Positions 331 through 50,330 of a stretch of DNA of 64,000 bases are shown piece after piece; position 1 is the stretch's first letter; every line of letters begins with the position of its first letter. The notes under the pieces are model-generated. The model was not told where the DNA came from and did no database searches. It saw nothing but the letters and a program-made list of their open reading frames with translations. Source of the stretch: Alphaproteobacteria bacterium (GTDB taxonomy: Bacteria; Pseudomonadota; Alphaproteobacteria; MPNO01; UBA830). The stretch lies in contig OZ251539.1 of assembly GCA_965243135.1 (NCBI GenBank), positions 4,160,001 through 4,224,000 on the forward strand. Reading direction: 5' to 3'. A program made the translations under genes and the position numbers.

Positions 331-352
331 GCGCCTCGGAGTTGATAAAGGG
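331..352 (+). repeat. Half copy of dispersed palindromic site (GCGCCTCGGAGTTGATAAAGGG)
   Basis: 19/22 match to repeat terminus GCGCTTCGGAGTTGATAGCGGG at 31333-31354; intergenic at left edge of the methylase operon. Confidence 0.7.
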
Positions 353-402
353 CCTTAAATAAAGGCGGCCGGAACAAAAATCAGGAATACGCAAATCGCG
401 CT

Positions 403-2064
403 TCAAGTGCGGAACGGCTCGAATTCGTCAAATCCAGATCTGGACATATGTTGTTCGATCGCGCTGGCGGTACGAAGCGCCCGCCGTTGTTTCAGATCCG
501 CGACCCATATGAATTTTCGACCCTTTACGCTTTTGAAATGCAGTCTGCCGCGTTTCCCGTTTTTGACAGCCAAAACGGTTTTGGTTTCCGGATCCGGTTC
601 AAACTCGAATGACGCGACTTTCGTATAACCCTTGTCTGGAACTCTAAGGCCGATGAAACTTGTTTCGGTCTTGCTGATTCCACATGGCACCACATGTTCC
701 GGCTGTTTCTCTTCCTCCTTGAGCGGCACAAAAAGAAACGCCTGCGCTGTCTCCAAGCGCACCGAATCGCAGCTCGCCTGAAGGCAAAGCCAATGGTTGC
801 GTTTGGGATCCAGAACGATTGTACCGAGACCAAGTTCCGGAGAGAATTTTAGCTGCTTTATCGCATAATCATCCGGATGCGAACGCGTACCCGTCAGCGC
901 TGCAAATTTCTTCATCAACATATTGGCTTCAGCGGAATTTTTGGCAAATAGAGAGGTAAACGACTTCTTGAATCTTTCATTACCTGGCCTTCGAGCGACA
1001 TTGATTAAATTAGGAACATTCCGATATCCATTTAGTATCATCTCAATGACATCATTGACTTGTATGTCCGTTTCATTGTCGTTTTCGTCAATAAATTTGA
1101 GGCTATTACGCTCACCCGCTATCGATTGCACTCGACGTTCCAAAGCGGATTGACCAGCCAGATCCCGCCCGACTTTCCGAAGTCTTGTTGCGCTTGCCAG
1201 TTCCGAAAGAACGAGGTTGACCGCATATTCCTCCGCCTCGTCAGGAACCGGGATGCTCGCCCTATGATGAAAGTACGGTCCGTCCATGTCTCCGCTGAAG
1301 CTGCCCACGACTTGGTGCGTCACGTCTCTGATTTTTGCGACGGTCCCGAGCGCCACGTTCGACAACAGTCCCTCGGACAGCTTGGAAAACTCCTGCAACA
1401 GACGGTCCGGCAGTTCGGACTCGCTTATCTGATCGTTCGCCGAACCCGCTTGAAGCCTGGTACCATGTTTTTTGAACAGGCATACGATTTTCAACCCCAC
1501 TACGCTCCGTATTTCTCTTTTGTCGGAGACGCTCAATTTCATTCGCGATCGCTCGGCTGGCGTCCAAGATGTTTTGATGTCATTCAGTATCTTTCTCCGT
1601 CCGCGTTCCCCGGTATATATCGCGATCAGGCGAAGCCGACCGTTTCGTTCCTGATCGTGTCGGACAATCTCCCTGATCAGCGAACAGGTTGTCGCCCCGC
1701 TGTCGCCGTGGATTTCCCAGTCCAGACACACGATGTCCACTCGCGCCGCGGCTTTCAACACTCTCTGCGTGAGTTGATTCTGATTCTCTCCATGACGGTG
1801 ATGAAGCACGGAGCAGACCAACCCGATATCCATTGCGCCGTCCACGAGGGATTTTGCGTCGAGCACGTGAGTGACGTCTTGCTTTCCGGCAACGACATCG
1901 TCATTCTCTGCCGCCCGACGATGGCCGCGTCCCGGTCGAACGACAACGTTCGGCACTGGATCTTCGACGGTCTCCAAGGTGGCTTCGTCATCCACCACGA
2001 TCATGGTCTGAGCGAAACTTTCGGCAGCCTTCCGTCGATCCTCGCAAAAATCATCCCTCGTCAC
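403..2064 (-). CDS. Response-regulator receiver-domain protein with large uncharacterised C-terminal region
   Basis: IVVDDE acidic pocket and IVCLDW putative phosphoacceptor; GTG start at 2064 preceded by GGAGA; overlaps upstream kinase gene. Confidence 0.75.
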   Translation of the reverse strand: MTRDDFCEDRRKAAESFAQTMIVVDDEATLETVEDPVPNVVVRPGRGHRRAAENDDVVAGKQDVTHVLDAKSLVDGAMDIGLVCSVLHHRHGENQNQLTQRVLKAAARVDIVCLDWEIHGDSGATTCSLIREIVRHDQERNGRLRLIAIYTGERGRRKILNDIKTSWTPAERSRMKLSVSDKREIRSVVGLKIVCLFKKHGTRLQAGSANDQISESELPDRLLQEFSKLSEGLLSNVALGTVAKIRDVTHQVVGSFSGDMDGPYFHHRASIPVPDEAEEYAVNLVLSELASATRLRKVGRDLAGQSALERRVQSIAGERNSLKFIDENDNETDIQVNDVIEMILNGYRNVPNLINVARRPGNERFKKSFTSLFAKNSAEANMLMKKFAALTGTRSHPDDYAIKQLKFSPELGLGTIVLDPKRNHWLCLQASCDSVRLETAQAFLFVPLKEEEKQPEHVVPCGISKTETSFIGLRVPDKGYTKVASFEFEPDPETKTVLAVKNGKRGRLHFKSVKGRKFIWVADLKQRRALRTASAIEQHMSRSGFDEFEPFRT

Positions 2065-5026
2065 TGTTTCTCTCCATTCGCGAAATTCTGAACGCCGCTC
2101 CCGTGGAAGGCTTCCCGGCTTCAAGCGTCAGGTTCCAACCCTCCTTGTTCAACGCCGCCCTCGATATATGGAGCCCCATTCCCCTGCCTCCCGGTTTTCT
2201 CGAAAACCGCAACAGGAAAATGTTGGTGCGATCTCCCGCCCTTACGCCGGGGCCGTTGTCCCGAACCACCAAGGCCCCGTCTTCGGCGTCCAATTCGATC
2301 TCGCGCGGGCGATCCTTTATGTCCTTCAACCAGAATATCGAGTTGTCGACTAGGTTGGCGAAGGCCGAATAGAAGGTCGAAGGGTAACTGACGACCGTCG
2401 CTTCCCGGAAAGCGTCCGTAGTCGTCAAGGCAACGGAGTGGCGTTCCAGCCGCTGTTCGAACAGATCCCTGATGAACTTGTATATCTCCGTACCGCGAAC
2501 CTCCACCCGGTTGCCGTAAAGTCGACGGTCGAATGGCGTGAACATGGTCAGATAACCGTCGAGATGATCGAATGCGCCCCTCATGTCTCTGTAGAGATTG
2601 TCCATATCAGGATTGGCTCGGGCCCAAGCCCGCAATCTTCTGAAGCCGTCTCTGAGCGCGCCAACCGTCTTCTCGAACTCGTGGCTGACGATGCTCACGG
2701 CCATTCCAATCTGGGCCATTTCCAGATCGGTGTCGCGCTGTTCGCGAAGATCCTCCAGTTCTTCTTCCATCGCTACGACCACGTCAATCGAATCGAACTC
2801 CCCTTCCGACCACGATTGACCTAATTCGTCGAATTGCTCCTTCAGGCGCTGGAGACGTATGCGCTCGCGTTCGAACGCGCTGTCGATCTTCTGCTCCAGT
2901 TCCCTGCGTTTCCCGGCGAGGGCATCGACTCCGACCTGCGCGCGCTTTAGTCTCTCCAGTTCGGAAAGGACTTCGTCTACGGTGGAGTTCACGGTTCTGA
3001 AGCTGTTTCTCGTCGTGGACTGCGCGATGGCAGCCACCTTCGAAACCGCTTCGTCCGACTCTTTTCTCAGGCGACGAACCGCTCCTACGGCTGTCTGGCT
3101 TCGCGACCGCACCGCCGAGTCGATTCGCACGAATTGATGGAATGGCAGCTTGAAGTTCGCCGCCGAAGTGCCGACATATTCCTCGATCTGCAATTCGGCC
3201 GGGCCGAGAACGTCGCTTTCCAGCCGTTCGAACTCGCGCGTATAGTCGAGCCACTGGTTGGACAGCCTTCGGGGCAATCCAACTCTCGGCCTGACGACGA
3301 TCGATCGTGCGCGGATCTCCTGCAGCTCTCCGCGCCCGTCCCTCTCTATCCTCATGAGCGCCAGCGCTTTCCCTCTAGGATCGCGTTTTGACCGAAGCAC
3401 CCGATCAGTTCCCCGTTTGACCTTCTCCAGCGTTTCTTCCGTTTCCTTCTCTATAGCGTGCCCGGCAAGTCCGTCAAAAAACAGTTCGAGAGACCGTTCG
3501 AAATTCTGCCGTTTGGAACTAGCCTGCCGCGCTCGGCGCTTTCGGCTTTCGTCCGCTTTCTGGAGTTCTTGCCTTTTCCGTTCCCAGTCTTCCGAGCGGT
3601 TTCCGTCTTCGCGGAAAAAATCGCCAGCGGACTGAAGAAAAAAATTGATGAGAATCGAGCGGAACTGACGATACGCTAGATTCTCGCTGAAGCCCTCCCT
3701 CCCGGCCTTTTCGTTCAAGGCTCCGTTGGCGGCGGCAGTGAGTTCTATCGCGCCGAACATTCGCCGAAACGAATAGAAGTAGTAGCCCGCGCCAAGCGTG
3801 CGGCGCCTTTCGATGTCCAGCCAGTCGTAATCCGCTCCTCCGTATGGCTGAACCCGGATACCGTCTCTGTATATGTATATTCCGCCCAGTCTGCCGGTTT
3901 TCCGGCTCATGCGCGCAAAATCCTCCGGCGGCACCAGGGATGCGGAGCGTTCGCCCTGCAGGATGGCGACCGACAGATCGAAGGGCCCGCATATCGTCTT
4001 GCGGCCGTCTCCCTCGTTCCAGCTCAGCACGTATCTATCCGGTTTCGTCTGATAGACGTGGACATTTCCCTGAAACTGACCGTATTCGTCGAAGCGGCCT
4101 TCGATGCGATGATCGACCATCAGGAATTCGTCTGGAGTGAAAAACGCGCTTTCGCCGATAAACTCCCGCGGCGCGCCTTCGTCCGGATAGTCTCGAAAGC
4201 GCGCCACGATTGGCGGAGGCTTGCTTCCCGGCGTCATGGTGTTCGTGAAGCCGAGAAGGTGCTTCTCGAAGTTCGTCGCCTTGTCCTGCTCCCTTGTATC
4301 CATGTCGTCCTGGACAAGGCGTTCCATCGGTCTGACGAAGAAGTGGGTGCCGGCGCCTTCGCCGGAAAGGGAGGGCGCGCCGAGCTCCGCGTTCAACTTG
4401 CGCGGATCGAGGTCGAATTCGTCCAGATCCCGCCTGATCGCCGCGAGGCGGTCGCGGTCGATCCGATCGGCAAGCCTGTCCACGACATTCGAATACTCGG
4501 CCGTCATCTCCCTGACCGCCGCTCCGTCCGGCAGTGCGGCCGCCGGAAATTCCCGGACGGGGATTTCAATCTCGTCGAGATCGAGTCCTGGAAGCTCGAA
4601 GAGTTTCCAATTCACGAAGGCCGCGACCAGCCCGTCGCCGGGAACGCCGTTCCTTCTGGCGCGGGTAAGGATGAATAGCTGGGGGCCGAGAATCGCGGCC
4701 GCGAGACGTCCGATTCCTTTTTCTCCAAGTGTCGGCCGCTTCGGCTGATCCGGATCCCTTGGGGGCGGCGGCAATCCTTGTTTCGTCCCCAGCTTGCTTT
4801 CCGTCCCCAAGGTGAGCCAGCGTTTCTCGAAATCGTCGCGCGTCATGCCGAGGCCGTCGTCCCGAAGCACCAGCAAGTCGTCTTCGCGGAAATAGTCGAC
4901 CTCCACGTTCCGGGCGTAGGCGTCATGGGCGTTCTTGAACAGCTCGCTGATCGCGGTCGGAATGCCGGCGATCTGCTGCCGGCCCAGCATGTCGACGGTA
5001 CGCGCGCGTACGTGAAACCTGGCCAT
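2051..5026 (-). CDS. MORC/GHKL ATPase - coiled coil - histidine kinase fusion protein
   Basis: N-terminal ELFKNAHDA, DDGLGM, GEKGIGRL GHKL motifs; long coiled coil; C-terminal SHEF H-box, NLVDNS, DNGPG, GRGMGL. Confidence 0.85.
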   Translation of the reverse strand: MARFHVRARTVDMLGRQQIAGIPTAISELFKNAHDAYARNVEVDYFREDDLLVLRDDGLGMTRDDFEKRWLTLGTESKLGTKQGLPPPPRDPDQPKRPTLGEKGIGRLAAAILGPQLFILTRARRNGVPGDGLVAAFVNWKLFELPGLDLDEIEIPVREFPAAALPDGAAVREMTAEYSNVVDRLADRIDRDRLAAIRRDLDEFDLDPRKLNAELGAPSLSGEGAGTHFFVRPMERLVQDDMDTREQDKATNFEKHLLGFTNTMTPGSKPPPIVARFRDYPDEGAPREFIGESAFFTPDEFLMVDHRIEGRFDEYGQFQGNVHVYQTKPDRYVLSWNEGDGRKTICGPFDLSVAILQGERSASLVPPEDFARMSRKTGRLGGIYIYRDGIRVQPYGGADYDWLDIERRRTLGAGYYFYSFRRMFGAIELTAAANGALNEKAGREGFSENLAYRQFRSILINFFLQSAGDFFREDGNRSEDWERKRQELQKADESRKRRARQASSKRQNFERSLELFFDGLAGHAIEKETEETLEKVKRGTDRVLRSKRDPRGKALALMRIERDGRGELQEIRARSIVVRPRVGLPRRLSNQWLDYTREFERLESDVLGPAELQIEEYVGTSAANFKLPFHQFVRIDSAVRSRSQTAVGAVRRLRKESDEAVSKVAAIAQSTTRNSFRTVNSTVDEVLSELERLKRAQVGVDALAGKRRELEQKIDSAFERERIRLQRLKEQFDELGQSWSEGEFDSIDVVVAMEEELEDLREQRDTDLEMAQIGMAVSIVSHEFEKTVGALRDGFRRLRAWARANPDMDNLYRDMRGAFDHLDGYLTMFTPFDRRLYGNRVEVRGTEIYKFIRDLFEQRLERHSVALTTTDAFREATVVSYPSTFYSAFANLVDNSIFWLKDIKDRPREIELDAEDGALVVRDNGPGVRAGDRTNIFLLRFSRKPGGRGMGLHISRAALNKEGWNLTLEAGKPSTGAAFRISRMERNSDEG

Positions 5027-6112
5027 CTATCCCGCGCAGGTCCGGCAGACTTCCTCATGCCGAAGGACATGCCTGCCGACGGCGCTCGCCAGCCTGACCG
5101 GAACCGCGTTCCCGATCTGACGCGCCATTGACCCTATACCTCCGAAAAATTCGAACGAATCGGCGAAAGTCTGAAGTCTCGCCGCTTCCCGTACGCTCAG
5201 CGCCCTGTTCTGCTCAGGATGTCCGTAGCGCCCGTTCGAAAGGCTGATGCACCGGGTCGTCAGGGCAGCTGCGGGCCGGTCCTTGCGAAGTCTTCCGTAA
5301 ACGTCCGTATGGCCCTTGTAATTGTTGTGGCAATCAAGTCTGAGGCGCTCAGGCCAGCTTTCCCGTCCGCAGCCGGGAGGGGTCGCCCGGATTCGCTCCA
5401 GATTTATCCGCGACAGGTTCGCCGCGCAATGATTGGCGATTTTCTCGCAGGATTGGCCGGCCTCCAGCGAGGGAAGGTCCTCGATCCATTTCCACACGGA
5501 CTCCGGTTCAGGATGGTCGGTGCCGGGTCCGTGCGTCGCGTCCGGCACCTCGATCGGGCCGAGCAGGCTGGCCAGCAATACGAAGCGCCGACGGTATTGA
5601 GGGACGCCGAAGTCCTGCGCCTTCAGAATCCCCGTGTCGTGTTTGTATCCCAGCCTATCGAGCAGTTCGGTAAACCTGTCCAGCGGCCCCCCCTTTTTGT
5701 TGTCGACGTCCTGAAGTCCGGCGACATTCTCGACGAAGACGTAATCAGGTCGAAAGGTTCCGATGAACCGGTGGATTTCGTCGAGCAGGCTGGCGCGGGT
5801 GTCCTTGCGGTCCCGGGTCGTCCGTTGCCTGGTGAACGGCTGGCAGGGAGCGCAGGCCGAAAACAGCAACGGGCGCTTCCGGTTTTCCCGGTTCTCCGGA
5901 ATCACCGATGTCAGATCGCTATGCCGGAGATGCCGGATGTCTTTCAGGAAAAATTTCGCATCCGGAAAATTCCCGGCGAACGTGCGCCCGGCATCGGCAT
6001 CATTGTCGATCCCCGCAAGGATCCTCATGCCCACCTCCTGCAGCCCGGCACTCGTGCCTCCGCATCCGCAGAAGAAGTCAACCACTTCGATCACAGACAA
6101 CCCGCCATGCAT
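5027..6112 (-). CDS. dcm: DNA (cytosine-5)-methyltransferase
   Basis: DFFCGCGG motif I, APCQPF catalytic PC, ENV, QYRRRF, REAARLQTF, QIGNAVP. Confidence 0.93.
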   Translation of the reverse strand: MHGGLSVIEVVDFFCGCGGTSAGLQEVGMRILAGIDNDADAGRTFAGNFPDAKFFLKDIRHLRHSDLTSVIPENRENRKRPLLFSACAPCQPFTRQRTTRDRKDTRASLLDEIHRFIGTFRPDYVFVENVAGLQDVDNKKGGPLDRFTELLDRLGYKHDTGILKAQDFGVPQYRRRFVLLASLLGPIEVPDATHGPGTDHPEPESVWKWIEDLPSLEAGQSCEKIANHCAANLSRINLERIRATPPGCGRESWPERLRLDCHNNYKGHTDVYGRLRKDRPAAALTTRCISLSNGRYGHPEQNRALSVREAARLQTFADSFEFFGGIGSMARQIGNAVPVRLASAVGRHVLRHEEVCRTCAG

Positions 6113-6279: not shown

Positions 6280-7005
6280 ATGCTTGAACGATACTCACGA
6301 AGCCGGTCCGCCGGCGACGGTGCGGCGGCCGGCCCCGAGGCCGTCCGGCGGGCCGACGCAAGCGCGCCGGTCGACCCTTCGGACCTCGGGTTTCTGCGCA
6401 GCGCCCTGCACGAGGTGTTCGCCGCGGACGCGGGCGCCGCGACGGCTTTCTGCGCTCTGCTGGCCGGCCGGCTGGCCCGCGCCGGAAACTTCGTCCTTTG
6501 GTGCGAACAGCCCCGGGCGCTCGACGCCGGCGAGCTTTACGCACCGGCGCTGCGGACTTTCGGCGTCGATCCCGAGCGGATGCTTCTGGTGCGGGCGCGA
6601 CGCGACGCGGATGCGCTATGGGCGATGGAAGAGGGTTTGCGCAGCCGCAGCCTCGCCGCGGCGGTCGGCGAAGTCGCCGAACTGAGCCTGACCGCCGCCC
6701 GCCGCCTGCAACTTGCCGCCGAGGCCGGCGGCGCCGCGGCGATCGTCCTGCGGCCGAATCGCGAGACGCCGTCGCCGGGAGCCGCCGCGACGCGCTGGCG
6801 CATCGGCGAACCGCCGGCCCGAACGGTCGACGCGCCGCGGCAGCCGGCTTCCCCGGGCCTCGGCGCAGCGCAATGGCGGGCGAGGCCGTTTCGCTGCCGG
6901 GGCGGCGCCTTCCGAATGATCGAGTGGAACCATGAAACGGGTGATTTCTCTGTGGCTGCCCCGGTTCGCGACGGACCGCGCGCGCTGCCGGAACCGGCCG
7001 GATAG
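6280..7005 (+). CDS. imuA: ImuA (RecA-like inactive ATPase, translesion synthesis)
   Basis: ALHEV, GELYAPAL, DALWAMEEGLR, LTAARRLQLAAE, AATRWRI; ATG 6280 chosen because the track's TTG start lies in the -35 box. Confidence 0.88.
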   Translation: MLERYSRSRSAGDGAAAGPEAVRRADASAPVDPSDLGFLRSALHEVFAADAGAATAFCALLAGRLARAGNFVLWCEQPRALDAGELYAPALRTFGVDPERMLLVRARRDADALWAMEEGLRSRSLAAAVGEVAELSLTAARRLQLAAEAGGAAAIVLRPNRETPSPGAAATRWRIGEPPARTVDAPRQPASPGLGAAQWRARPFRCRGGAFRMIEWNHETGDFSVAAPVRDGPRALPEPAG

Positions 7006-10000
7006 ACCGTTCGGCCTGATCGAATCTCGCGGCGGCCAGTTTCTGCTGCATGCCGTCGACGAGAAGGCGGAACGGGCCGGGATCCGCGTCGGGCAGACAT
7101 TGGCCGACGCCCGCGCGATTCTGCCCGAGATCGACGCCGCCGAAGTCGACCCGGCGGCGGAAGCGCGCGCCCTGGCCCGTCTCGCGGAATGGTGCGGCAG
7201 ATACACTCCGTGGACCGCTCCCGGCGGTTTCGGAAACGTCGGCGACGGCTCGGTCTGGCTCGACGTCACCGGTTGCGCCCGCCTGTTCGGCGGCGAGCCC
7301 GCCTTGCTCCGCGACCTGGCGCGCAAAGTCGGAGATCTCGGTTTCTCGGCCCGCGTCGCGGCCGCCGACACGCCGGGCGCCGCGTGGGCCGTCGCCCGTT
7401 ACGGCCGTTCTCGCGTGGAGCGCGTTCTCCGGGGCCAGTCCCGGGACGCGATCGCGCCGCTGCCGGTCGCGGCGCTCCGGCTGACGCAGCCGACCGTCCT
7501 GGACTTGCATGCGCTGGGGCTGCGTCGAGTCGACGATCTGCTGGCCATGCCGCGGGCGACGCTGGCCGACCGGTTCGGCCGCGAAATCGTCGATCGGCTG
7601 GACCAGGCGCTGGGCGCTCGCCCGGAGCCGATCTCGCCCGTCGCCCCGGCGAGCCGGACGTTCGCGCGAGTCGGATTCTCCGAGCCGGTCGGACGCAGCG
7701 AGGATATCGCCGAAGCGCTGGGCAACCTCGCAAGCGAGATCGCGGCCGCCCTCGAGGCCGAAGCACGCGGCGCACGGCGACTGGTCCTCGCCCTCCATCA
7801 TTCGGACGGCGCGGTCGACCGGCTCGCCGCCGGGACGAGTTGGCCGAGTTGCGACGCCGGGCATCTGGCGCGCCTGTTCGCCGAACGCCGCATCGAGTCG
7901 GCGTTCGGCGTCGACGCCATGACGCTGACCGTTGCCGAAAGCGAGCGGCTGCGGCCGCTGCAGGCTGCCTTCGATCGCGGCGGTCAGGAAGCGGACGTCG
8001 CCGAGCTTGCCGACCGGCTGAGCGCGCGGCTCGGCGCCGACCGCGTGTTGCGGCCTTCGCCGCGGGAAAGCCGCATTCCGGAACGCGCAGTCGAACTGTC
8101 CCCCGTCACGGCCATGCGGCCGCCGCCGAGCGCTTCGTGGCGGGACGGGATCCTTCCTCTACGGCTTTTTTCCCCGCCGGAAGAAATCGAGGCGGCGCCG
8201 CCGGGTTTCGACGATCCGCCGACGACGTTTCGCTGGCGCAGGCGAACGTTCCGCGTCGAGCGCGCGGACGGTCCCGAACGGCTGTCGCCGGAATGGTGGA
8301 GACCGGACGACCGGGCCGCCTCCCGCGACTACTACCGGGTCGAGGACGATAACGGCCGCCGTTTCTGGATCTACCGGGAAGGCCGCTCCGGGTGGCGCCT
8401 CCATGGAATATTCGGAAGAAGCGCCGCGCGGGCGGGACAAAGACCGGGCGCGCCGGAACGCCGGAAGCGCCCGAGCGCTCCGCCTCGCCGGCCCGCCCGC
8501 CCGCCGCCCTACGCCGAGCTCGCCGTCACGACCAACTTCTCCTTTCTCCGGGGCGCGTCCCATCCCGAGGAACTCGTGGCCAAGGCCGCCGCGCTCGGAC
8601 TTTCCGCGGTTGCCGTTGCCGACCGCAACACGCTCGCGGGCGTGGTCCGCGCCCATCAGGCCGCGAAAGAGGCGGGCATCCGGCTGCTCGTCGGCGCGCG
8701 GCTCGATTTCGAGGACGCGCCGCCGCTGCTCTGCTTTCCGTCCGACAGGGCGGCCTACGGCCGGCTCTCCAAACTCATCACCCTCGGCCGCCTGCGCGCT
8801 CCCAAGGGCGCCTGCGCGCTTCGTCTGGAAGATCTTGCCGCGCATGCCGGAGGACAGTCCCTCGTCGCGATGCCGCCGGACGACCCCGAGGATCCGCAAA
8901 TCCTCGGCTACCTTGCCCGGCTGCGCGAGATGCCGGGAGCCGGCGTCTGGGCGGCCGCGCGCTTCCGCTACGGCGGCGGCGATGCGGCGCAGCTGCGGAA
9001 GATCGCCCGCCTCGCGGCGCGGGCCGGGGTTCCCATGGTCGCGATCAACGACGTCTGCATGCACGTTCGGGAACGCAAGCCGCTGCTCGACGCGCTCGCC
9101 TGCATCCGCGAAGGCTGCACGATCCGCGAGGCGGGTTTCAGGTTGGAGCGCAACGCCGAGCGTTGCCTCAAGCCGCCCGAAGAGATGGCGCGGCTGTTCC
9201 GGGACTATCCCGACGCGGTACGGCAGACGATGGAAATAGCCGGACGTTGCGCCTTCTCGCTGGACGAGTTGCGCTACGACTATCCCGACGAGGCGCCGTC
9301 CGGCGCGACCCCGCAGGCCGAGCTCGAACGCCTGGTTTGGGAGGGCGCCGCCGAACGTTATCCAGACGGCGTGCCGGACGACGTGAAAACGCAGGTCGCC
9401 CGCGAGCTCGGGCTGATCGGAGAGCTGGGCTACGCGCCCTATTTCCTTACCGTTCAGGATATCGTCCGCTTCGCCAGATCCAGGAGCATTCTGTGCCAGG
9501 GACGCGGGTCGGCGGCCAATTCCGCGGTTTGTTATTGCCTCGGCATCACCGCCGTCGATCCCGTGCGCATGGATCTCCTGTTCGAGCGCTTCGTGTCGGC
9601 CGCGCGCCGGGAGCCGCCCGACATCGATGTCGATTTCGAGCACGAGCGCCGCGAAGAGGTCATTCAGTACGTCTACGGCAAATACGGCCGCGAACGCGCC
9701 GCGCTGGCGGCGACCGTCATCCACTACCGTGCGCGCATGGCCGTGCGCGAGGTCGGCAAGGCGATGGGACTCAGCGAAGATACCACCGCCGCGATCGCCT
9801 CCACGGTCTGGGGATGGAGCGGGAATGGCATAGCCCCCGAACAGGCTGGCGAGGCCGGTCTCGATCCGAACGACCCGCAGCTTTGCGCAACCCTTCGACT
9901 CGCCGGCGAGCTGACCGGCTTTCCGCGCCACCTGTCGCAGCATCCCGGCGGCTTCGTCGTCACGCAGGGACCGCTCTCCGAACTCGTCCCCGTCGCCAAC

Positions 10001-11632
10001 GCGGCCATGCCCGACCGCACCACCATCGAATGGGACAAGAACGACCTCGACGCACTCGGCATCCTTAAGGTCGACGTGCTCGGGCTCGGCATGCTGACCT
10101 GCATTCGCAAGGGCCTCGACCTGCTGGCGCGGCACTACGGCAGAAAGTTCGACCTTCACCAAATTCCCGCCGACGATCCCGACGTCTACGACATGCTGTG
10201 CGCGGCCGATTCCGTCGGCGTGTTCCAAGTCGAAAGCCGGGCTCAGATGACCATGCTGCCACGCCTCAGGCCGCGCAACTTCTACGACCTTGTCATCGAG
10301 GTCGCGATCGTCCGGCCCGGACCCATCCAGGGCGACATGGTCCATCCCTATCTGCGCCGCCGCAACGGCGAGGAGACGGTCGACTATCCCTCCCCGGAAC
10401 TGCGCGCCGTGCTGGAAAAGACCATGGGCGTGCCGTTGTTCCAGGAGCAGGCGATGAGGATCGCCATCGTCGCCGCCGGATTCACCCCGTTGGAGGCCGA
10501 CAAGCTGCGGCGCGCCATGGCGACCTTCCGCAACGCCGGCACGCTGGACGCCTTCCGGGAAAAGCTGGTCGGCGGCATGGTCGCCAACGGCTACGATCAG
10601 GAATTCGCGGAACGCTGCTTCCGCCAGATCGAGGGGTTCGGCGAGTACGGCTTCCCGGAAAGCCACGCGGCGAGCTTCGCGCTGCTGGTCTACGTGTCCG
10701 CCTGGCTCAAGAAGCATTACCCGGACGCGTTCGCCGCCGCCATCCTCAACAGCCAGCCCATGGGATTCTACAGGCCGGCCCAGCTCGTTCGCGACGCCCG
10801 AGCGCACGGCGTCGAGGTCCGTCCGGTCGACGTCAACCACAGCCTGTGGGACAACGCCCTGGAAAGGAACGGAAATGCCAGCGCCCTGCGTCTGGGGTTG
10901 CGACAGGTCAAGGGATTTTCGAAGGAGCATGCAACGACCCTGGCGCAGGAAGCGTCGGTCCGCCCTTTCTCTTCTCCGGCGGACCTCCGACGCCGCACGG
11001 GCCTGCCGACGGCGGCGCTGGAGCGGCTGGCGCATGCGGACGCTTTCGGCTCGATGGGGATCGGCAGGCGTCAAGGGCTATGGGCGGCGGCGGCCCCCGC
11101 GCCGTTGCCGTTGTTCCAAAGCAATGAAGCGCGCCCGATCCCGAAGTTGCCGTCGATGGCGGCAGGGGAGGCCGTTACCCGCGACTACGCGTTTCTCGGC
11201 CTGTCGCTCAAGACGCATCCTCTGGCCTTGCTGCGCGCGGAATTGGGCGCCGCCGTTCCAGCCGAACGGCTTGCGGAGATGAAAGACGGCGCGGCGGTCT
11301 CGGTCGCCGGGCTTGCGCTTATGCGGCAGCGGCCCGGCACGGCGAGCGGCGTTATCTTCATGACGATCGAAGACGAGACCGGAGTGGCCAATCTGGTGGT
11401 CTGGCCGAAGATCTTCGAAAGGTACCGCCGGGTCGTGATGGGCTCCCGCCTGATTCGGGCGAGCGGGCGGCTTCAACGCGAGGGGATCGTCATCCATGTC
11501 ATCGCCGACCGGATGGAAGATCTGACCGATCGCCTGCGCGCTCTCGCCGCCGGAAATGCTGCAAGTCCCGGACGAAACCCTGGCGGTTCCGGCCGGCTCG
11601 GCAAGCTGTACCCGTCGCGGGACTTTCGTTGA
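6932..11632 (+). CDS. imuB-dnaE2: ImuB (inactive Y-family polymerase) fused in frame to error-prone polymerase DnaE2/ImuC
   Basis: ImuB N-half (LWLPRFATD, RYTPW, GPERLSPEWW, RDYYRVED, WRLHGIFG) then PHP domain YAELAVTTNFSFLRGASHP, PPDIDVDFEH, KVDVLGLGML, C-terminal SRDFR. Confidence 0.9.
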   Translation: MKRVISLWLPRFATDRARCRNRPDRPFGLIESRGGQFLLHAVDEKAERAGIRVGQTLADARAILPEIDAAEVDPAAEARALARLAEWCGRYTPWTAPGGFGNVGDGSVWLDVTGCARLFGGEPALLRDLARKVGDLGFSARVAAADTPGAAWAVARYGRSRVERVLRGQSRDAIAPLPVAALRLTQPTVLDLHALGLRRVDDLLAMPRATLADRFGREIVDRLDQALGARPEPISPVAPASRTFARVGFSEPVGRSEDIAEALGNLASEIAAALEAEARGARRLVLALHHSDGAVDRLAAGTSWPSCDAGHLARLFAERRIESAFGVDAMTLTVAESERLRPLQAAFDRGGQEADVAELADRLSARLGADRVLRPSPRESRIPERAVELSPVTAMRPPPSASWRDGILPLRLFSPPEEIEAAPPGFDDPPTTFRWRRRTFRVERADGPERLSPEWWRPDDRAASRDYYRVEDDNGRRFWIYREGRSGWRLHGIFGRSAARAGQRPGAPERRKRPSAPPRRPARPPPYAELAVTTNFSFLRGASHPEELVAKAAALGLSAVAVADRNTLAGVVRAHQAAKEAGIRLLVGARLDFEDAPPLLCFPSDRAAYGRLSKLITLGRLRAPKGACALRLEDLAAHAGGQSLVAMPPDDPEDPQILGYLARLREMPGAGVWAAARFRYGGGDAAQLRKIARLAARAGVPMVAINDVCMHVRERKPLLDALACIREGCTIREAGFRLERNAERCLKPPEEMARLFRDYPDAVRQTMEIAGRCAFSLDELRYDYPDEAPSGATPQAELERLVWEGAAERYPDGVPDDVKTQVARELGLIGELGYAPYFLTVQDIVRFARSRSILCQGRGSAANSAVCYCLGITAVDPVRMDLLFERFVSAARREPPDIDVDFEHERREEVIQYVYGKYGRERAALAATVIHYRARMAVREVGKAMGLSEDTTAAIASTVWGWSGNGIAPEQAGEAGLDPNDPQLCATLRLAGELTGFPRHLSQHPGGFVVTQGPLSELVPVANAAMPDRTTIEWDKNDLDALGILKVDVLGLGMLTCIRKGLDLLARHYGRKFDLHQIPADDPDVYDMLCAADSVGVFQVESRAQMTMLPRLRPRNFYDLVIEVAIVRPGPIQGDMVHPYLRRRNGEETVDYPSPELRAVLEKTMGVPLFQEQAMRIAIVAAGFTPLEADKLRRAMATFRNAGTLDAFREKLVGGMVANGYDQEFAERCFRQIEGFGEYGFPESHAASFALLVYVSAWLKKHYPDAFAAAILNSQPMGFYRPAQLVRDARAHGVEVRPVDVNHSLWDNALERNGNASALRLGLRQVKGFSKEHATTLAQEASVRPFSSPADLRRRTGLPTAALERLAHADAFGSMGIGRRQGLWAAAAPAPLPLFQSNEARPIPKLPSMAAGEAVTRDYAFLGLSLKTHPLALLRAELGAAVPAERLAEMKDGAAVSVAGLALMRQRPGTASGVIFMTIEDETGVANLVVWPKIFERYRRVVMGSRLIRASGRLQREGIVIHVIADRMEDLTDRLRALAAGNAASPGRNPGGSGRLGKLYPSRDFR

Positions 11633-14300: not shown

Positions 14301-14309
14301 GAGAGATCG

Positions 14310-43043: not shown

Positions 43044-43094
43044 CCCCTTATCGATTTCGAAGTGCGACACGTGCGGTCAGCAATCTCGGTCACG
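43044..43094 (-). repeat. Diverged copy of the 3' half of the 100-bp repeat
   Basis: Minus strand GTGACCGAGATTGCTGACCGCACGTGTCGCACTTCGAAATCGATAAGGGG aligns without gaps to the end of copy 3; 15 bp after rppH stop. Confidence 0.8.
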
Positions 43095-43099
43095 GCGCA

Positions 43100-43283
43100 A
43101 GACCCTGTCGTCGCGGCCCCCGTTCGCCGCGAAATGCAACCGGATGGTCGGGTGCGCTTCTGGGGAACGGTTACGCGACCCGGCGAAAACGCTCCGCGCA
43201 TCCTCCGCGTGGTCACGCTGGCCGACGGAAAAACGGTCCATAACGCTTTCTTCGATCGGGGATTCAGGGAGGACGAACCATGA
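43100..43283 (+). pseudogene. 5'-truncated toxin-like gene paired with DUF2283
   Basis: PVRREMQPDGRVRFWG..LRVVTLADGKTVHNAFFDRGF; ATGA overlap with DUF2283 gene; 5' end occupied by the repeat. Confidence 0.6.
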
Positions 43284-43495
43284 AGCTCCATTACTATCCC
43301 GAAACTGACAGCCTCTACATCGAGCTCGGACCCGCGCCAAGTGTGGAGACGCGCGAGGTTTCCGACGGGTTGAACGTCGATCTCGACGCCGCTGGCGGCG
43401 TGGTTGGCTTCGATATCGACCATGCGTCGCGGCGGCTCGATCTCTCCACGCTTGAGGCCGAGGCGCTGCCGCTCCGCTCGATCAGAGCGGGATGA
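43280..43495 (+). CDS. DUF2283 family putative antitoxin
   Basis: MKLHYYPETDSLYIEL..DLDAAGGVVGFDIDHAS. Confidence 0.85.
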   Translation: MKLHYYPETDSLYIELGPAPSVETREVSDGLNVDLDAAGGVVGFDIDHASRRLDLSTLEAEALPLRSIRAG

Positions 43496-43531
43496 GCGCA
43501 ATGGCGGGCGAGACGACGGCCGCGGCTAGGC

Positions 43532-45898
43532 CTGCCTGTGCCCCATAAAGATTTTTCTGGACTCTGGCCAGCCGATTCGCTACGGTGCCCGGCATGGAGT
43601 TCCAGAATCAGGTTCGGCAAAGCCTCCGGAACGATTTTGCGCGCTTGCAAGGGGTGCTGGCGAACGGGGTTTTCACTCGCCGCAGCGAGGTCGCGGATCG
43701 CGTGTGCGAAGCATTCGGGTTTCGTGATGGGCTTGGCCGCCTGCAGCGAGCGGGCTGTCTGAAGGCGTTGGCGGAGTTTGAGGCGGCGGGACGGATTTCG
43801 CTGCCGTCGCCGACGCATTCCGGCGGTGGCGCGTGGCGCCCGCGACGTCTTGCGGAGCCGGTTCCTCCGCCGAAGAGCGTACCGGAGGAAGTCGGTGCGG
43901 TCGAGGGCCTGGAGTTGGTGCCGGTGACGGATGACGATCATCGCCTGGTATGGAACACGATGCTGGAGGAGGAGCATCCACGCGGCGCCGGTCCACTGGT
44001 GGGCTGTCAGTTACGGTATCTGGTGGGGTCGGCGCATGGCTGGCTGGGGGCTGTCGGGTTCGCGGCGTCGGCGCACAGGCTCGAATGCCGCGACCGTTGG
44101 ATAGGCTGGAGCGACGCAGGAAGGCGCGCTTGTTTGCACCGGGTCGTGTGCCTGTCGCGTTTTCTGGTCCGGCCCGGCGTCGAGTGCCGTAATCTTGCCT
44201 CGCATGTCTTGGGCGGCGTGGTCCGCAGGGTGGGAGACGATTTCGAGGCGCGCTACGGCTACCGCCCGTATTTGCTGGAGACCTTCGTAGACCGGCATGC
44301 GGGAACGAGCTTTCAGGCGTCCAACTGGCACCGAATTGGCGAGACAGCCGGCCGGGGGCGACAGGATCGGGAACATGCGGCAACGGAGACGCCGAAGGCT
44401 GTATATGTGTACGAATTGGATGCGGACTGGCAGGTGCGCATCCTGGAGCCGCGTGCGCCGCTTGCACCGTTGGAGGTCGGATCCGGTCTGGATCGGGAGA
44501 GTTGGGCGGAACAGGAGTTCGGCGGTGCGCCGCTGGGGGATGTGCGTCTGAGCGCGCGCCTGGTGACTTGTGCCCGATATCAGGCGGAAGCGCCGACGCA
44601 GGCGTTCACGTGCGCTGCGAGAGGGGGCCTTGATAAAGGCTTACTATCGCTTGATCGACAAGCCGGACAGTGATGCGGTGACGGTGGAGAACATCCTGCA
44701 GCCGCATCGGCGGCAGACGCTGCGGCGGATGCAGGGGGAGAAGACGGTGCTGTGCGTGCAGGACGGCAGCACGCTGAACTTCGCGAAGCGGGGGAAGACC
44801 GAGGGTTTGGGAATCATCGGTCGGAACCAGACCGGCGCCGGCACCCGAGGCCTGAACCTGCACGCCACGGTCAACACGGAGGGGCTGCCGCTGGGGGTTC
44901 TGCGGGCGGCGTTCGATGCGCCGCAGCCGAGCGCGGAGAGGGACAAGCCCCGCGAGAAGAAGAAGTCGTACCGTTGGATTCAGGGCCTTCAGGACAGCGC
45001 CGAGGCTGCTTCTGCACTCGATGGCGTGCAGGTGGTCGGCGTCATGGACCGGGAGGCGGACTTCGTCGACCTGTTCGTTGAGCGGCGCGAGCGGGCGCCG
45101 GGAGTGGAACTTCTGGTGCGGGCGAAGACGAACCGGGTTCTCGGCAAGGACGACACCGACAAGCTGTTCGACAAGGTGCGGAAAAGCCCGGTGCAGGGCA
45201 AGCGCGTCATCGAGGTCAAACGTCTGAGCGCACGCATAAAGGCAAGCAAGCAGGCCGCGAGGGCCGTGCGGCCGGAGCGCCAGGCCACGGTCGAACTGCG
45301 CTACCTCAAGGTCGAGTTGCCGGCGAAGGGCAAGAATCCCGTCGAGGCGACGATTGTGCATGTCCGCGAGAAAGCTCCCCCGCCGGACGCCGGACGGCTG
45401 GAATGGTTCCTGCTGACGACGCTGCCGGTCGAGAGCGCCGAGGACGCCGAACGCATCCTGACTTGGTATGGCCTGCGCTGGCGTATCGAAGATTATTTCA
45501 GGGTCCTGAAGTCCGGCTGCCGAGGACCTTGAGAATCGGACGGCCGAACGTCTTCAGCGTGCCGCCGCCATCAACATCGTCATCGCCTGGCGCATCCACC
45601 TGATGACCCGTCTCGGACGGGAACTGCCCGATCTGCCGCCTGAGATCCTGTTCTCGGACGTCGAACTCCGGGTGCTGGCGCTCCTCGCCAAATCTTGGCG
45701 CATGGCACCGCCGAAAAGCCTCGGAGACGCTGTCTTCCTGGTCGCCCGCCTCGGAGGGTACTTCAAGCGCAAGCGTGATCCGCCAGGCGCGGAAGTGATG
45801 TGGAACGGCTACGCCCAACTCGCCGCCAAGGCGCATTTCCGGGAACTTGAGGATGAACACGGATGTTAGTTCAGCAAAACTTTATGGGGCACAGGCAG
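43532..45898 (+). mobile_element. IS4 family (IS50/Tn5-like) element
   Basis: Perfect terminal inverted repeats CTGCCTGTGCCCCATAAAG; direct repeat GGCTAGGC at 43524-43531 and 45899-45906. Confidence 0.92.
43594..45869 (+). pseudogene. DUF4338 + Tn5-like transposase fusion, two frameshifts (~44630, ~45525)
   Basis: GPLVGCQLRYLV, NLASHVL, LLETFVD; WAEQEFGGAPLGDVRL, VQDGSTLNF, VMDREAD, YGLRWRIEDYFRVLKSGC, VARLGGY. Confidence 0.85.
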
Positions 45899-46098
45899 GG
45901 CTAGGCGGCGGCGCTTGCCGTTCGGAGGTCTCGGGATTGCGGCGCTGAGGGCTGCCCCGTAACGCCCTGTCTTCACACCGCGACGCCCGAACGTGGAACG
46001 GTTATGTCGGTGCATGATAGCGGTGCGAGGCCGGGTGAACCATGACCAAAGTTACATGCTACGGGGTGAGCAGGCGCCGATCATGAGCGTTTGTTTCG

Positions 46099-49000
46099 TT
46101 GGCCCTTGACGCGCGCAACGCCGCCGCGCACTTCGCCGGCGAAATGGAGGCGCACGCCGCGCTGCGCCATCTGGACGCCATGCGCGAACTCCTGGCCGCC
46201 ATCGGCGCTGCTGGCCAGGAGACTGCGCTCGCAGCCCTTTATGACGAGCAATTTGCGGCAGACAGCGGGCCGGGGGCGGGCGCTAGCGACCTTAGGCTTG
46301 AGGAACCGCCGCCGGAACGCCCGCGCCCCTGGCGCGAGGTTTGCGAACCGCATCCCGATGTTCTGGCGGCGCGCTTCTCCGACGCCGAGTTCGCGGCCAA
46401 TCTGGCGTTGGTTGATCGGGGCCAGGGCGAGGAAGAATACGTCGACCCGGCGGTGTTCTTCCGCATCACCCATATGACCGAAGGGCTGCGACTGGTACTG
46501 CGGGCAGTCATCAAGCGGCTCGGCGGACGCGGCGGCGAGCCGGTGATCAGGCTTCAGACCAATTTCGGCGGCGGCAAGACCCACACCATGCTGGCGCTCC
46601 AGCGCGGTCGAGGCCGGCTACCGACCGAAGACTCTCGAAGGCTTGACTCCGATCTTCGCCGAGGCAGGCGTCGAAACCCTTCCCCGAATCCGGCGCGCGG
46701 TGTTCGTCGGCACCGACAAGGGTGCAGCAGAGGCAATGCACGTGGAGGATGGCCGGGAGGTCCGAACTCTGTGGGGGTACATCGCATGGCGGCTCGGTGG
46801 CTGGAAGGCAGTCGACAGCATCGCCGCGTCGGAAGACGCGGGGACAAATCCGGGATTGAAAAAGCTGATCCCTATTCTTCGCGAGGCTGTGCCGTGCCTG
46901 ATCCTGATGGACGAGGTAGTGGCGTTCGCACGCCAGTTGCGAGGCGTGCCTTACGACGCCTTCCACGCCTTCGTCCAGTCGCTGACCCGAGACCGCGGCC
47001 GCAGTCGAAGGTGCCGTGGTGGTCGGTTCGCTGCCGGAATCGGGCACCGAGGTCGGTGACGAGCAGGGTGAGACGGCGTTGCGGCGGCTGGAAAAGATTT
47101 TCGGGCGCCTGCAGTCGGCTTGGACGCCAGCGACCGATGTCGAGACCTTCGAGATCGTCCGGCGCCGCCTGTTCCAGCCGCTCGACGAAGCGGGCGGGCA
47201 AGCGCGCGACGAGACCGTTTGGGCGTTCCGCAAACTCTATCGCGACAACCGTGCGGACTTTCCGCCGAAAGCGCATGAAGAGGTCTACGAAGACCGGATG
47301 CGCCGCGCCTATCCACTGCATCCAGAAGTGCTACGGCGGTTTTCCGGCGATTGGTCAGTGCTGGAGAAGTTCCAGCGCACGTGCGGCGCTCTCAAGATCA
47401 TGGCGGGTGCCGTCTATGCGCTGTGGCAGGGCGAAAGCACCGCGCCCCTGATCACGCCGGCGCTGCTGCCGCTTCGCGATGCGCGCGTGCGGACCGCCCT
47501 CTTGGAACCGCTGGATCGCGCCTATGGGCCGATCCTGCAATCGGAAGTGGATGGCGATCAAGCGCTCACGGCGCGGATCGAGGCCCGGCGGCCTCGGATC
47601 GGCCGCGCAAAAGCGGCGACGGGCGCGGCGCGGGCGGTGTTTTTCGCCACTGCACCCCACGCAGGCGCCGCAAGCAACGCGCGCGGCGGCTTGACCGGCG
47701 CGGATCTGTGGCTCGCCTGCGCTCGTCCCGGCGACCAAATCGCGGTCTTCGGGGAGGCGCTGCAGGAAATCGCGTCAAGCGCGGCCTATCTCTACCGCGA
47801 TGGCGACCGCTTCTGGTTCTCGCCCCGCCCGACCCTGAACAAACTCGCCGCCGACCGCGCCCGCGACATGGACGCCGAGCGCGTCGACCGGCGCATCGTG
47901 GAAGTATTGCGCGAGGAAGCGCGCGACCGCGGCGGGTTCCACCGCGTCCACGCGGCTCCGGACGATCCATCCGACATTGAGGATCGGCGCGACGCTGCAG
48001 CGCTTGTGATCCTGCCTCCCTCGGCGGCGCACGACAACGACGGACCACCGCCATCCGCGGCGGAAACGCTTGCGCGAGACATCGTGGAGCGGCGCCGGAC
48101 CGGACAACGGAGCTATCGCAACGCGCTGGCGTTCGTGGCCGCCGACGCAGCGAACTTGGATGCGGCCCGCGAGAACGTGCGGCGGAAACTCGCTTGGCGG
48201 TCGATCTTGGACGATTCCGACCTTGAGAAGAACCTAACTCTCGCGCAGGCGAACGACGCCAAAGGACAGTTCGAGCGCGCGGGCGAGGCGCGCCGCCGCA
48301 GCGTCCGTGGTGCTTGGGTGCACCCCCTCTGTCCGGCGCCGGTCGAGGGCGCGAACGGCAAGCCATCTTCTGGTTTCGCCTTGCAGGCCGCACGGCTGGT
48401 GAACCGGGATGGTGCCAAAAGCGTGGCGCATGCAGCATGGGACAAGGCGACCGGGGACGGCACAGCGCTCGGCGAGATCGGCCCCGAAAACCTGACCCGC
48501 TGTCTCGAACCGCTGTGGCCGGAGAGCCAGCCGCATGCTCTGGTCGAGGACCTCCGCGAGTGGTTCGCTTCCTATGTTTACCTGCTGCGCTTGCGCGACG
48601 AGGCGGTTCTCGACGGCGCGCTGCGCCGCCTCGCCGAAGACTTCGCTCGGCCCTTCGCGCTCGCGGCCGGATTCGACGAGGCGACTGGTGTCTATGTCGA
48701 TGTCGTCGACGGAAAGGCGCTCCCGTTGGGAAACCTAGGCTCCCGTCTTCTGGTGCGTCGGGAGGCCATACCGGCGCCCCCTGAAGACCCTCGTCCGCCG
48801 CCGCCCGGCGGCAAGGCGTCGGACGATGCCAAGAGCGGCGGCGACCCCGACAAGCCGCAACCACCGCCCGACACGCCGCGGCCGAAACGGTTTTTCGCAT
48901 CGCTGAAGCTCGATCCCGAGCGTGCGGGCCGCGATGTAGCGCGGATCATGGACGGCCTGCTGGTCGAATTGACCCGCACGCCGGGGGCCAAAATCGAACT

Positions 49001-49124
49001 GACGCTGGAGATCGCAGGAACGGCGAGCGAAGTCGGCTACCCGCCGGATGTTGTGGACACCGTCACCGCCAACGCACGCGACCTCAAGTTGGATCAAGGC
49101 GACCTGGGGTTCGAGAAGAATTGA
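46099..49124 (+). pseudogene. DUF499 AAA+ ATPase, 5'-truncated and frameshifted
   Basis: PWREVCEPHPDV, EFAANL, Walker A LQTNFGGGKTHTML, Walker B LILMDE in another frame, FEIVRRRLF, AYPLHPE. Confidence 0.85.
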
Positions 49125-49354
49125 CGGCGAAGGTTCCGGTGCGTCGCCGCCGCGCCGACAGTGCGGTCGCAAAGGACGGGGTGGGCGCTTTGTCGAGCGC
49201 AGCCGGCAAGGCTGTCGCCGGGCTGCAGTGGCCTGCGCTCTGCGCGTCGGCCCGGCCACGCAGGTTCGCGGCCCAGGACAGGACAAACGGCGGTCGTCGG
49301 CGCGGCCACGGGGCAGAGGGGGATTTTTTCGCTGCGGCGGGGGCGTTCGCCTCC

Positions 49355-49454
49355 GCCGCCCCGGCTCCTTGACTCACCGGCCAACCCATCCCCATACTGC
49401 CTTGGTGACAGGGATTGCCGACCGTCGGTATTGCACTTCGGAGTTGATAGCGGG
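49355..49454 (+). repeat. ~100-bp promoter-carrying repeat, copy 3
   Basis: GCCGCCCCGGCTCCTTGACTCACCGGCCAACCCATCCCCATACTG...GCACTTCGGAGTTGATAGCGGG. Confidence 0.93.
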
Positions 49455-49934
49455 AAGGGATTAGAGAATTAGGGGGATTTGCTGCCCTAATTTCCTAGCG
49501 ATTTCGCTCATCACTCCGCGGGAGCTTCGAGCACGAATCCCGCGATCAAGAACCGGACGGCCCCCGAGTCGTCGGGGCCGAAGCGCACGTAACTTGCAGG
49601 TTCCCCGCCAACTCTCACATTGGGGGCTGGCACGCCCAGGCGGTAAAGAAGTCGGTCGCTGCTCTACCCCAACTCCCGCGCCGTCCGCCGAAGCGCTGCG
49701 CGAGGGGGCCGCCATTCCCTCTCGCGCGCTCAGTTCGGCGTTGAAGAGCGACCGGACCAAACGGTTAACGACGCCGTCGCCGCTGGCTCCTCTCGTCCAG
49801 GAATACGCGTTGTCGAACGACCCCGCGTCAGCGGGCGATTTCGCTCCTCGGGTAATTCGGATTCGATCCCGAAGCCCCCGAACCGGCCGGCCCGGCACCG
49901 TCAGGGGCGGGCCGGCCGCGACGGGAGGCGTCGA

Positions 49935-50330
49935 TCAGATGGAGCCGCTTCCCCCTCGTGAGGTCCATACGTCGAGGCAGCTTGCGCCGCATCCGCAAGA
50001 AGGTGTCCCACATGCGGCGCTCCCCCCGACGCACTTGCCGCCGCCGGCGACCGCATTGAGCACCTCGTCCCCCACGCTGGCGTTGAAATCGGGGGGAAGG
50101 ATGAAATGGAAAACCTCGTCAGTGTCCTCGACGATGCGCACTTCCGTATCGGGCACCACCTGGATGCTGTTCTCGGAGAGGGCGGCGACCGGGTCCGAGT
50201 TGAGGTTCGAGCGAAAATCCGGATCCTTGCGGTACTCATCCGCGATGGAAGCGAGCTGGCGCACGCTCTCTTGAAGTCCCTCGGGCGACACCGGAATGTG
50301 AAGCACCGTCGTCAAGTTGATAGGGGGCAT
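49935..50330 (-). CDS. NHLP/proteusin-type RiPP precursor, Cys/Gly-rich core
   Basis: Leader DPDFRSNLNSDPVAAL..EVRIVEDTDEVFHFILPPDFNASVGDEVLNAVAGG; core GKCVGGSAACGTPSCGCGASCLDVWTSRGGSGSI. Confidence 0.88.
   Translation of the reverse strand: MPPINLTTVLHIPVSPEGLQESVRQLASIADEYRKDPDFRSNLNSDPVAALSENSIQVVPDTEVRIVEDTDEVFHFILPPDFNASVGDEVLNAVAGGGKCVGGSAACGTPSCGCGASCLDVWTSRGGSGSI

Follow-up and report, generated by a model that had tools for sequence, protein, structure and literature searches.

The 64,000-nucleotide (nt) stretch analysed here, hereafter called the window, covers positions 4,160,001 to 4,224,000 of contig OZ251539.1 of an alphaproteobacterial genome (assembly GCA_965243135.1). It contains four patches of accessory DNA in which a short motif, TATCAACT/AGTTGATA, occurs repeatedly, and an earlier note had read the copies as a palindromic recombination or insertion site with hybrid products of the attL/attR type. 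We describe the copies together with the genes beside them and relate them to the terminal inverted repeats (IRs) of insertion sequences (ISs) of the IS30 family.

Copies of the motif in the window

The octamer TATCAACT/AGTTGATA has seven exact matches in the window (positions 340, 14999, 15027, 31342, 32795, 49442 and 50315) compared with 0.21 expected, and none of 100 shuffled sequences reached seven. A 19-nt degenerate pattern, CCCNYTATCRAYTYCGARG, which also picks up the variant copies at 32279–32297 and 43044–43062 deviating by one or two bases, gave eight matches with up to three mismatches (1.09 expected; eight reached in 0 of 100 shuffles), namely six perfect ones, one with a single mismatch (32789–32807) and one with three (31432–31450). 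The motif is non-random in the window. All coordinates listed in the earlier note hold, and the motif is confined to low-GC or accessory stretches. The sequence CCCnCTATCAACT... lies on the minus strand in seven of nine arms and on the plus strand in the other two (14994 and 43044). When the copies are read inward from their CCC end, here termed the tip, their outward similarity ends with the first C or close to it, and on the inner side they represent nested truncations of one sequence, as indicated by pairwise alignment and direct reading.

The longest copies are three units of the minus strand which retain 103–125 nt of this sequence: u31 (31252–31354, tip at 31354), u32 (32183–32297), which carries a 12-nt CA-rich insertion, and u49 (49352–49454, tip at 49454). 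Their alignments contain 91–93 identical columns of 103–115 (93 of 103 between u31 and u49), and a 32-nt block within them occurs three times in the window and nowhere else in it; the “module copies” of the earlier note are thus real. Each unit holds a GC hairpin and a promoter-like site on the plus strand (TTGACT-18-CATACT; 31269–31298, 32200–32229 and 49369–49398), which is the only sigma-70-like match of its 1.6–2 kb region and is directed outward through the tip. In u31 it faces a VG64-family lipoprotein gene (31452–31874). The tip of u32 lies 35 nt ahead of the ATG of a gene (32332–32727) for a precursor of a ribosomally synthesized and post-translationally modified peptide (RiPP) with an NHLP leader, here called NHLP precursor A, and u49 is located after a fragmented DUF499 gene. 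About 20 nt outside their tips, u31 and u32 share a weak similarity.

The remaining copies are shorter. A plus-strand copy at 43044–43100 keeps the outer ~57 nt and is identical to u49 in 37 of the first 50 positions; its tip at 43044 lies 15 nt past the stop (43029) of a NUDIX (rppH-like) gene, as noted earlier, and its inner side is joined to a 5′-truncated gene. Relative to this end u49 is inverted, and the two tips bracket 6.4 kb. Two minus-strand remnants consist of little more than the tip. In the one at 331–352 (tip at 352) 19–22 nt resemble the full units, with 16 of 19 identical to u49 and a perfect fit to the 19-nt pattern, and the inner half is gone; the other (32789–32807) retains 16–19 nt, of which 16 of 16 agree with u49. 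A 46-nt site at 14994–15039 begins with an arm of ~27 nt (tip 14994), behind which its own outer 13–16 nt recur in inverted orientation (tip 15039), so that the right arm keeps 14–16 nt of the end. It is the only site with both arms, as the earlier note had stated; the 14-nt spacer given there needs three more pairs, two of them G-U, and a strict count yields 13 nt, 20 nt and 13 nt. Finally, a minus-strand match at 50311–50330 falls on the start of a second NHLP-leader gene, NHLP precursor B (49935–50330), whose product begins M-P-P-I-N-L, and resembles the end over 11–14 nt. The weak minus-strand match at 31432–31450 overlaps the ribosome-binding site of the VG64-family gene and is probably a chance match, about one of this quality being expected.

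Relation to IS30-family inverted repeats

A scan of 185,579 species genomes with a 22-nt pattern of the motif returned 12 loci. Six of them, in three Thermodesulfobacteriota metagenome-assembled genomes (MAGs), belong to a repeated element, one terminus of which coincides exactly with the pattern. Three copies (L001, L004 and L008) are 96–97% identical over 1298 nt and start with the motif's first C, L007 comprises the first 531 nt only, and L011 and L012 (2001–2050) consist of a solo first 44 nt, i.e. the right end, behind which the tip recurs in inverted orientation; this is the build of the 15-kb site of the window. The flanks of the element differ right up to the first C. It has terminal IRs of ~23 nt and a 313-residue open reading frame (ORF) that matches the NCBIfam model NF033563, “IS30 family transposase” (E 9.5e-84, 281 bits at a cutoff of 80), and contains the Pfam domains HTH_38 and rve; reading of its sequence also reveals an outward TTGCTA-16-TATACT at a place similar to that of the unit promoters. 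Its right IR is the nearest sequence found to the window copies, with 19–21 of 23 nt identical to u31, u32 and u49 (19 for u31, 21 for u49) and the same CCC tip, and its occurrence as a solo end with inverted tip parallels the solo ends and the palindrome of the window. It belongs, however, to another phylum, and past the IR its interior shows no significant similarity to the units, for which reason we regard the IS of the window as a relative of the MAG element and not as the same element; an extended homology of the units with its interior was discarded. The other six loci (L002, L003, L005, L006, L009 and L010) have no homology to the window except a tRNA in L010 and were treated as chance. 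On translation the L010 match lies inside an ORF, and six chance loci is about the number expected from the information content of the pattern, an estimate and not a computed value.

Since the first 22 nt of similarity to the MAG element are forced by the search pattern and the rest is not significant, IS30-family ends were sought by a route independent of the motif. A tblastn search of plasmids with the MAG transposase gave 2051 records, the best of which, at 48–50% identity, are found in Pseudoalteromonas, Acinetobacter towneri, Marinomonas and ISAs2. Ten IR ends were taken from five elements, i.e. ISAs2, three related plasmid ISs and, with its annotated boundaries, IS30A of E. coli K-12. 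All ten contain an ATTCAA-type block and, six bases on, a GTGCAAC-type block, and at the corresponding places, in the same register, the window copies read CTATCAA and G(C/T)GCAAT or GTGCGAC. The register is anchored at the tip: TCAA occupies nt 8–11 counted from the annotated IS30A end, from the empirical end of the MAG element and from the point at which the window copies diverge. A 15-nt run of the right IR of ISAs2 is identical to 43055–43069, and the 21-mer of this IR has its single window match at that copy, with no match in 100 shuffles. Every 23-mer of the window (127,956 in all) was compared with the ten ends. The highest scores, 18, 17 and 17 of 23, belong to the 43.0-, 15.0- and 49.4-kb copies, respectively, and each of them was reached against the right IR of ISAs2; for the 15-kb site it is the left arm, at rank 2–3. 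The u31 copy is among five positions at 16, and the 32.3-kb unit and the 32.8-kb remnant reach 15 each. Scores at background level were obtained for the 0.3-kb remnant (13), the right arm at 15 kb (10) and the 50.3-kb copy (11).

On the basis of these comparisons we consider it probable, at roughly 80%, that the motif constitutes the outer part of the terminal IR of an IS30-family IS of the ISAs2-like subgroup (ISAs2 of Aeromonas salmonicida; type element IS30 of E. coli). The copies share with this subgroup an ATTCAA-like block at nt 5–11 and a GTGCAAC-like block ~6 nt further in, thus the terminal IR of ~20–30 bp with conserved blocks in fixed register that is typical of the family. They differ from the named ISs in the outermost 4–5 nt (CCCGC) and in the complete outward promoter of the right end, where the named elements have just a −35 box; moreover, the window lacks a transposase, a second full IR and a complete element. 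By analogy, the IR would be the DNA bound and cut by an IS30-type DDE transposase. The end fragments of the window would then comprise three right-end modules, two or three stubs of the tip only, the 46-nt palindrome and an end of 57 nt that runs into a truncated gene.

Directly observed are the tip-anchored identity with IS30-family IRs, the lack of a transposase in the window and the truncation of a gene; the route from an IR sequence to a history of insertion and decay might be as follows. An ISAs2-like IS, possibly still present elsewhere in the 6.1-Mb genome, would have inserted repeatedly into horizontally acquired DNA, and later deletions and rearrangements would have left only its ends. 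Old ends might in turn attract new insertion events and concentrate them where ends already are. IS30 transposition is described as a copy-out-paste-in process via a joined IR-IR junction, with near-palindromic hot spots and the element’s own IRs as targets and with further rearrangements resulting from IR-targeting (PMC9333248), and the two-step circle pathway is reported to be common to the IS30 family (PMC3299598). The preference for own IRs and near-palindromes would explain the clustering in accessory patches, and insertion into such targets fits the palindrome as well (PMC9333248). Of the earlier view that the site is a recombination or insertion substrate shaping the accessory genome, the role as a rearrangement substrate and the link to accessory DNA are retained, whereas the hybrid attL/attR mechanism is not.

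The retained modules might act as portable outward promoters for the VG64-family lipoprotein gene and for NHLP precursor A. Mechanistically, the unit promoter may drive the transposase after circle formation and neighbouring genes after insertion. Activation of neighbouring genes is described as frequent among copy-out-paste-in elements (PMC7780238), and the reuse of promoters ahead of unrelated genes is documented for putative mobile promoters (PMC3575422).

Weighing the alternatives

Several observations weigh against an origin of the copies from an IS30-family element. Neither an IS30-family transposase nor a full-length element is present in the window, and the cognate IS was not seen. No domain of an IS30 transposase (including HTH_38 and rve), integrase or resolvase was detected in 85 candidate ORFs and in 207 stop-to-stop ORFs of the four patches; the latter represent 207 of 226 stop-to-stop ORFs of at least 80 residues, the other 19 being already among the 85. 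A tblastn search of the window with the MAG transposase pieces yielded nothing better than E 0.008 over 25 residues. An internal gene with HTH_38 and rve DDE domains (NF033563), as carried by IS30-family elements, is therefore lacking, and the copies are to be considered remnants, not members, of the family. The window’s own genome is absent from the 12 loci of the genome scan, and beyond the 22 nt forced by the pattern 88 to 764 of 1000 shuffles reach the score observed between the units and the MAG element. Searches with a unit gave only one 25-nt and one 19-nt chance match in plasmids and none in phages, negatives that count for less because the IR is too short and too diverged at that database size. 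Four copies keep only 11–19 nt of the tip, agree with the independent IRs in 10–15 of 23 positions and could be targets or chance relics. For the 50.3-kb copy the N-terminus I-N-L-T-T of NHLP precursor B is conserved, 12 of 14 homologues starting with M-I/L-N-L/M-T, which identifies ATCAACTTG at this place as native coding sequence, codons 2–6; the 14-nt match of the earlier note at 50314–50327 is thus true, its reading as a recombination or IS site is not. Finally, the inner boundary is common to all three units, which independent decay of full copies would not predict.

Two inverted IRs bounding ~1–1.7 kb, as in a complete IS30-family element, were not found; the only outward-facing tips are those of the 46-nt palindrome and those at 43044 and 49454, a pair 6.4 kb apart that consists of two right-type ends. 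Insertions of the family are flanked by target-site duplications of 2–3 bp, and the flanks of this pair allow a 2-bp AA repeat, for which chance is about 1 in 16 with the tip position uncertain by 1–2 nt. Near u32, an IRL-like 23-mer at 32157–32179 agrees with IS30-family ends in only 14 of 23 positions and represents a marginal left-IR candidate. The units resemble miniature inverted-repeat transposable elements (MITEs), solo IRs and mobile promoters in being short, transposase-less, repeated in intergenic DNA and equipped with a promoter ahead of unrelated genes. They are dispersed and have both boundaries in common, but contain one clear IR and not the two of MITEs.

In the interpretation of the earlier note, the motif is the core site of a tyrosine or serine site-specific recombinase, the 15-kb palindrome an intact site and the modules attL/attR-like hybrids. 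The position of copies at the edges of accessory DNA and beside a tRNA-Ser gene would suit such a system, and the 15-kb site resembles the outcome of arm swapping at a common core because its outer side recurs, over 20 aligned nt, at the beginning of NHLP gene B and its inner side in the units. We nevertheless consider this very unlikely: neither the 207 patch ORFs nor the 85 candidate ORFs yielded a domain of an integrase, resolvase or invertase, the outer similarity is partly due to native coding sequence, and the part common to all supposed hybrids is a transposon IR, the “arms” agreeing with IS30-family IRs in a register counted from the tip of the element. The “spacer and right arm” corresponds to the IR itself and the “different left arm” (GATTGCCGACCG) to IS interior beside it; unlike an att arm, this interior extends for ~80 nt as a conserved, promoter-bearing module. 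Integron attC and Xer/dif sites, names which we set alongside by description only, are likewise short imperfect palindromes at borders of accessory modules, but the window offers no nearby recombinase gene and its sequences match transposon ends. A binding site of a transcription factor, with the units as copies of a regulated promoter and the palindrome as the full operator, would suit the three units, in which a promoter-like site precedes the motif by 55 nt and faces genes, and the existence of a palindromic version; promoter reuse ahead of unrelated genes is, moreover, documented (PMC3575422). It is decidedly unlikely, as the promoter is present in only three of nine copies, the 43-kb copy is directed into the 3′ end of the NUDIX gene, u49 faces no convincing gene, and agreement with IS30-family IRs including their register is not expected of a host operator.

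That the repeats are 5′ gene fragments, i.e. N-termini of toxins or NHLP precursors spread by duplication, might be suspected from the in-frame position of the motif after an ATG at three copies (15, 43 and 50.3 kb), the last of which is truly coding. For the 43-kb copy, the ~22 N-terminal residues read from it do not match the consensus of the 83-residue family to which the adjoining gene belongs, and the units have no start codon, run into a stop after ~23 codons and are unlike the NHLP N-terminus apart from I-N. A coding origin was accordingly ruled out for the units and the 43-kb copy and accepted for the 50.3-kb copy, which leaves this explanation of the repeats as a whole extremely improbable. 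Equally little credit is given to a structured RNA or a family of repetitive extragenic palindromes (REP-like). The 15-kb site does form a long and very stable hairpin (z = −5.4; none of 200 shuffles equally stable), but the other eight copies have no second arm, and seven non-palindromic stretches (six copies, two of them on both strands) folded no more stably than shuffles. The units gave z-values of +0.1 to +1.2, i.e. no stable RNA fold, so that a DNA/protein site is favoured over an RNA. Rfam returned only tRNA for the window at gathering thresholds, only a chance miRNA (E 0.53) for 31–33 kb at E ≤ 1 and nothing for eight related loci at E ≤ 0.1; neither a conserved stable fold nor a curated family match thus emerged. 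IS200/IS605 elements (TTGAT target) and the 5′ end of group II introns (GTGCG), both considered as leads, were dropped once the element proved to be of the IS30 family.

The IS30-family origin favoured here might also be combined with a more active role of the ends. The shared inner boundary, the similarity outside u31 and u32, the sequence shared by the 15-kb site and NHLP gene B and the recurrent palindromes make such a role conceivable, although we rate it as unlikely. In a specific form, to which we attach a similarly small probability, the 103–125-nt modules would not result from decay but constitute a mobile promoter cassette, non-autonomous and with a single end, on which an IS30-family transposase acts in trans via IR-targeting, and the same pathway would recombine tips with look-alikes at gene starts. 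One of these gene-start look-alikes would be the ATCAAC of the NHLP RiPP precursors. New N-termini (MPP-INL) and hybrid sites, the 15-kb palindrome among them, would arise in this way, and small cargo genes would be shuffled from one accessory patch to another.

Genes beside the copies and implications

The best-defined trace of a rearrangement is found at the 43-kb copy. The gene at 43107–43283 (plus strand) is the 3′ part of a member of an 83-residue family and the upstream partner of a DUF2283 gene (43280–43495). The length of 83 residues is found in 23 of 24 aligned homologues, and the window gene matches them only from “AAPVRRE” (about residue 26) on, with 90% identity over 73% of the query for the best match. 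About 25 N-terminal codons are thus missing, in agreement with the toxin gene lacking its 5′ end that the earlier note had described; the first ~22 codons of the ORF after 43044 are motif-bearing DNA, and the IS end runs straight into the gene. Transposase domains do occur in the window, in an IS4/Tn5-like IS and in IS66-like fragments near 26 kb. The former (43523–45907) starts 28 nt after the DUF2283 gene, has 32-nt IRs (91% complementary) unrelated to the motif, and its transposase (DruA-like N-terminal domain, Tnp_DNA_bind, DDE_Tnp_1 and Dimer_Tnp_Tn5) is split over three reading frames. The latter lie at 25292–27830, where 34-nt inverted repeats (94% complementary) surround a DruA-like ORF, an IS66-family DDE fragment and a 42-nt tandem repeat in five copies (27412–27663). 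The DUF499 (anti-phage-associated) gene ahead of u49 is in pieces (46547–49124, plus strand) that cover part of the 1024-position Pfam profile, and is probably a pseudogene.

The two NHLP-leader (nitrile-hydratase-like) precursors A (plus strand) and B (minus strand) comprise 131 residues each, are 35% identical and lie beside IS-end fragments in both cases. The same 6.1-Mb contig carries, outside the window, a third paralogue (P0123) with 84% identity to precursor B, and the MPP extension is found only in two paralogues of this genome. No maturase or transporter gene for these precursors was recognised in the window. The start of gene B and the 15-kb site share AACATGCC[TCC]CCCTATCAACTT, in which 8 of the 20 aligned nt are outside the IR. 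The remnant at 32789–32807 lies 62 nt past the stop of precursor A, with a candidate GGACT-like fragment outside it. A “GGCT pseudogene” ending at 32807, as proposed earlier, could not be substantiated: nothing was found in Pfam, among PDB sequences or in the homologue search (39–126 residues), an Atlas lead to GGACT (0.88) is below threshold, and the gene beside this copy is precursor A.

The three copies between 31 and 33 kb belong to an island adjoining the tRNA-Ser gene. A short plus-strand ORF (31873–32031) after the VG64-family gene has a ribbon-helix-helix look by eye, consistent with a decayed integrative or mobilisable island. An ORF beside the tRNA-Ser gene (33443–34354, minus strand) contains a 51-nt tandem repeat in four copies (33913–34167), and a 49-nt inverted repeat (28254–28367; 84% complementary, 16 nt between the arms) lies near an HNH-endonuclease ORF (28654–29058).

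The 0.3-kb remnant is placed between the 3′ end of a Response_reg_2 gene (403–2124, minus strand) and a SnoaL-like ORF, ~50 nt beyond the last gene of a methylase operon, in DNA of 54–62% GC compared with 65–72% for most of the window. This operon (403–6112, minus strand) encodes a C5 cytosine methylase, a 991-residue HATPase and HEF_HK protein and the Response_reg_2 protein and looks like an acquired methylase-linked module. It is followed at 6932–11632 (plus strand) by a 1566-codon frame with an N-terminal IMS (ImuB-like) domain and then PHP, DNA_pol3_alpha and OB domains, i.e. an in-frame imuB-dnaE2 fusion or two genes without a stop between them. The 15-kb site is located between a stretch without recognisable genes and a GDPD (ugpQ-like) gene. 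Near it, at ~14000–16000, the GC skew turns from negative to positive with a cumulative minimum, which may reflect gene orientation alone.

If the IS30-family origin is correct, eight sites resembling an unknown recombination signal would be scars of IS30-family ends and would record earlier insertions and deletions in the four accessory patches, one such event having removed the 5′ end of the toxin-like gene beside its DUF2283 partner. The three modules, which place the same promoter-like site ahead of unrelated genes, would represent a small case of IS-borne promoter reuse. The motif would accordingly not be a new recombination site but an ordinary transposon scar of a well-known kind, the exact IS being previously unnamed and present only as remnants. 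That the units have one inner boundary in common, and that palindromes built of an IR arm plus an inverted tip occur in two phyla, would remain as modest puzzles in IS30 biology.

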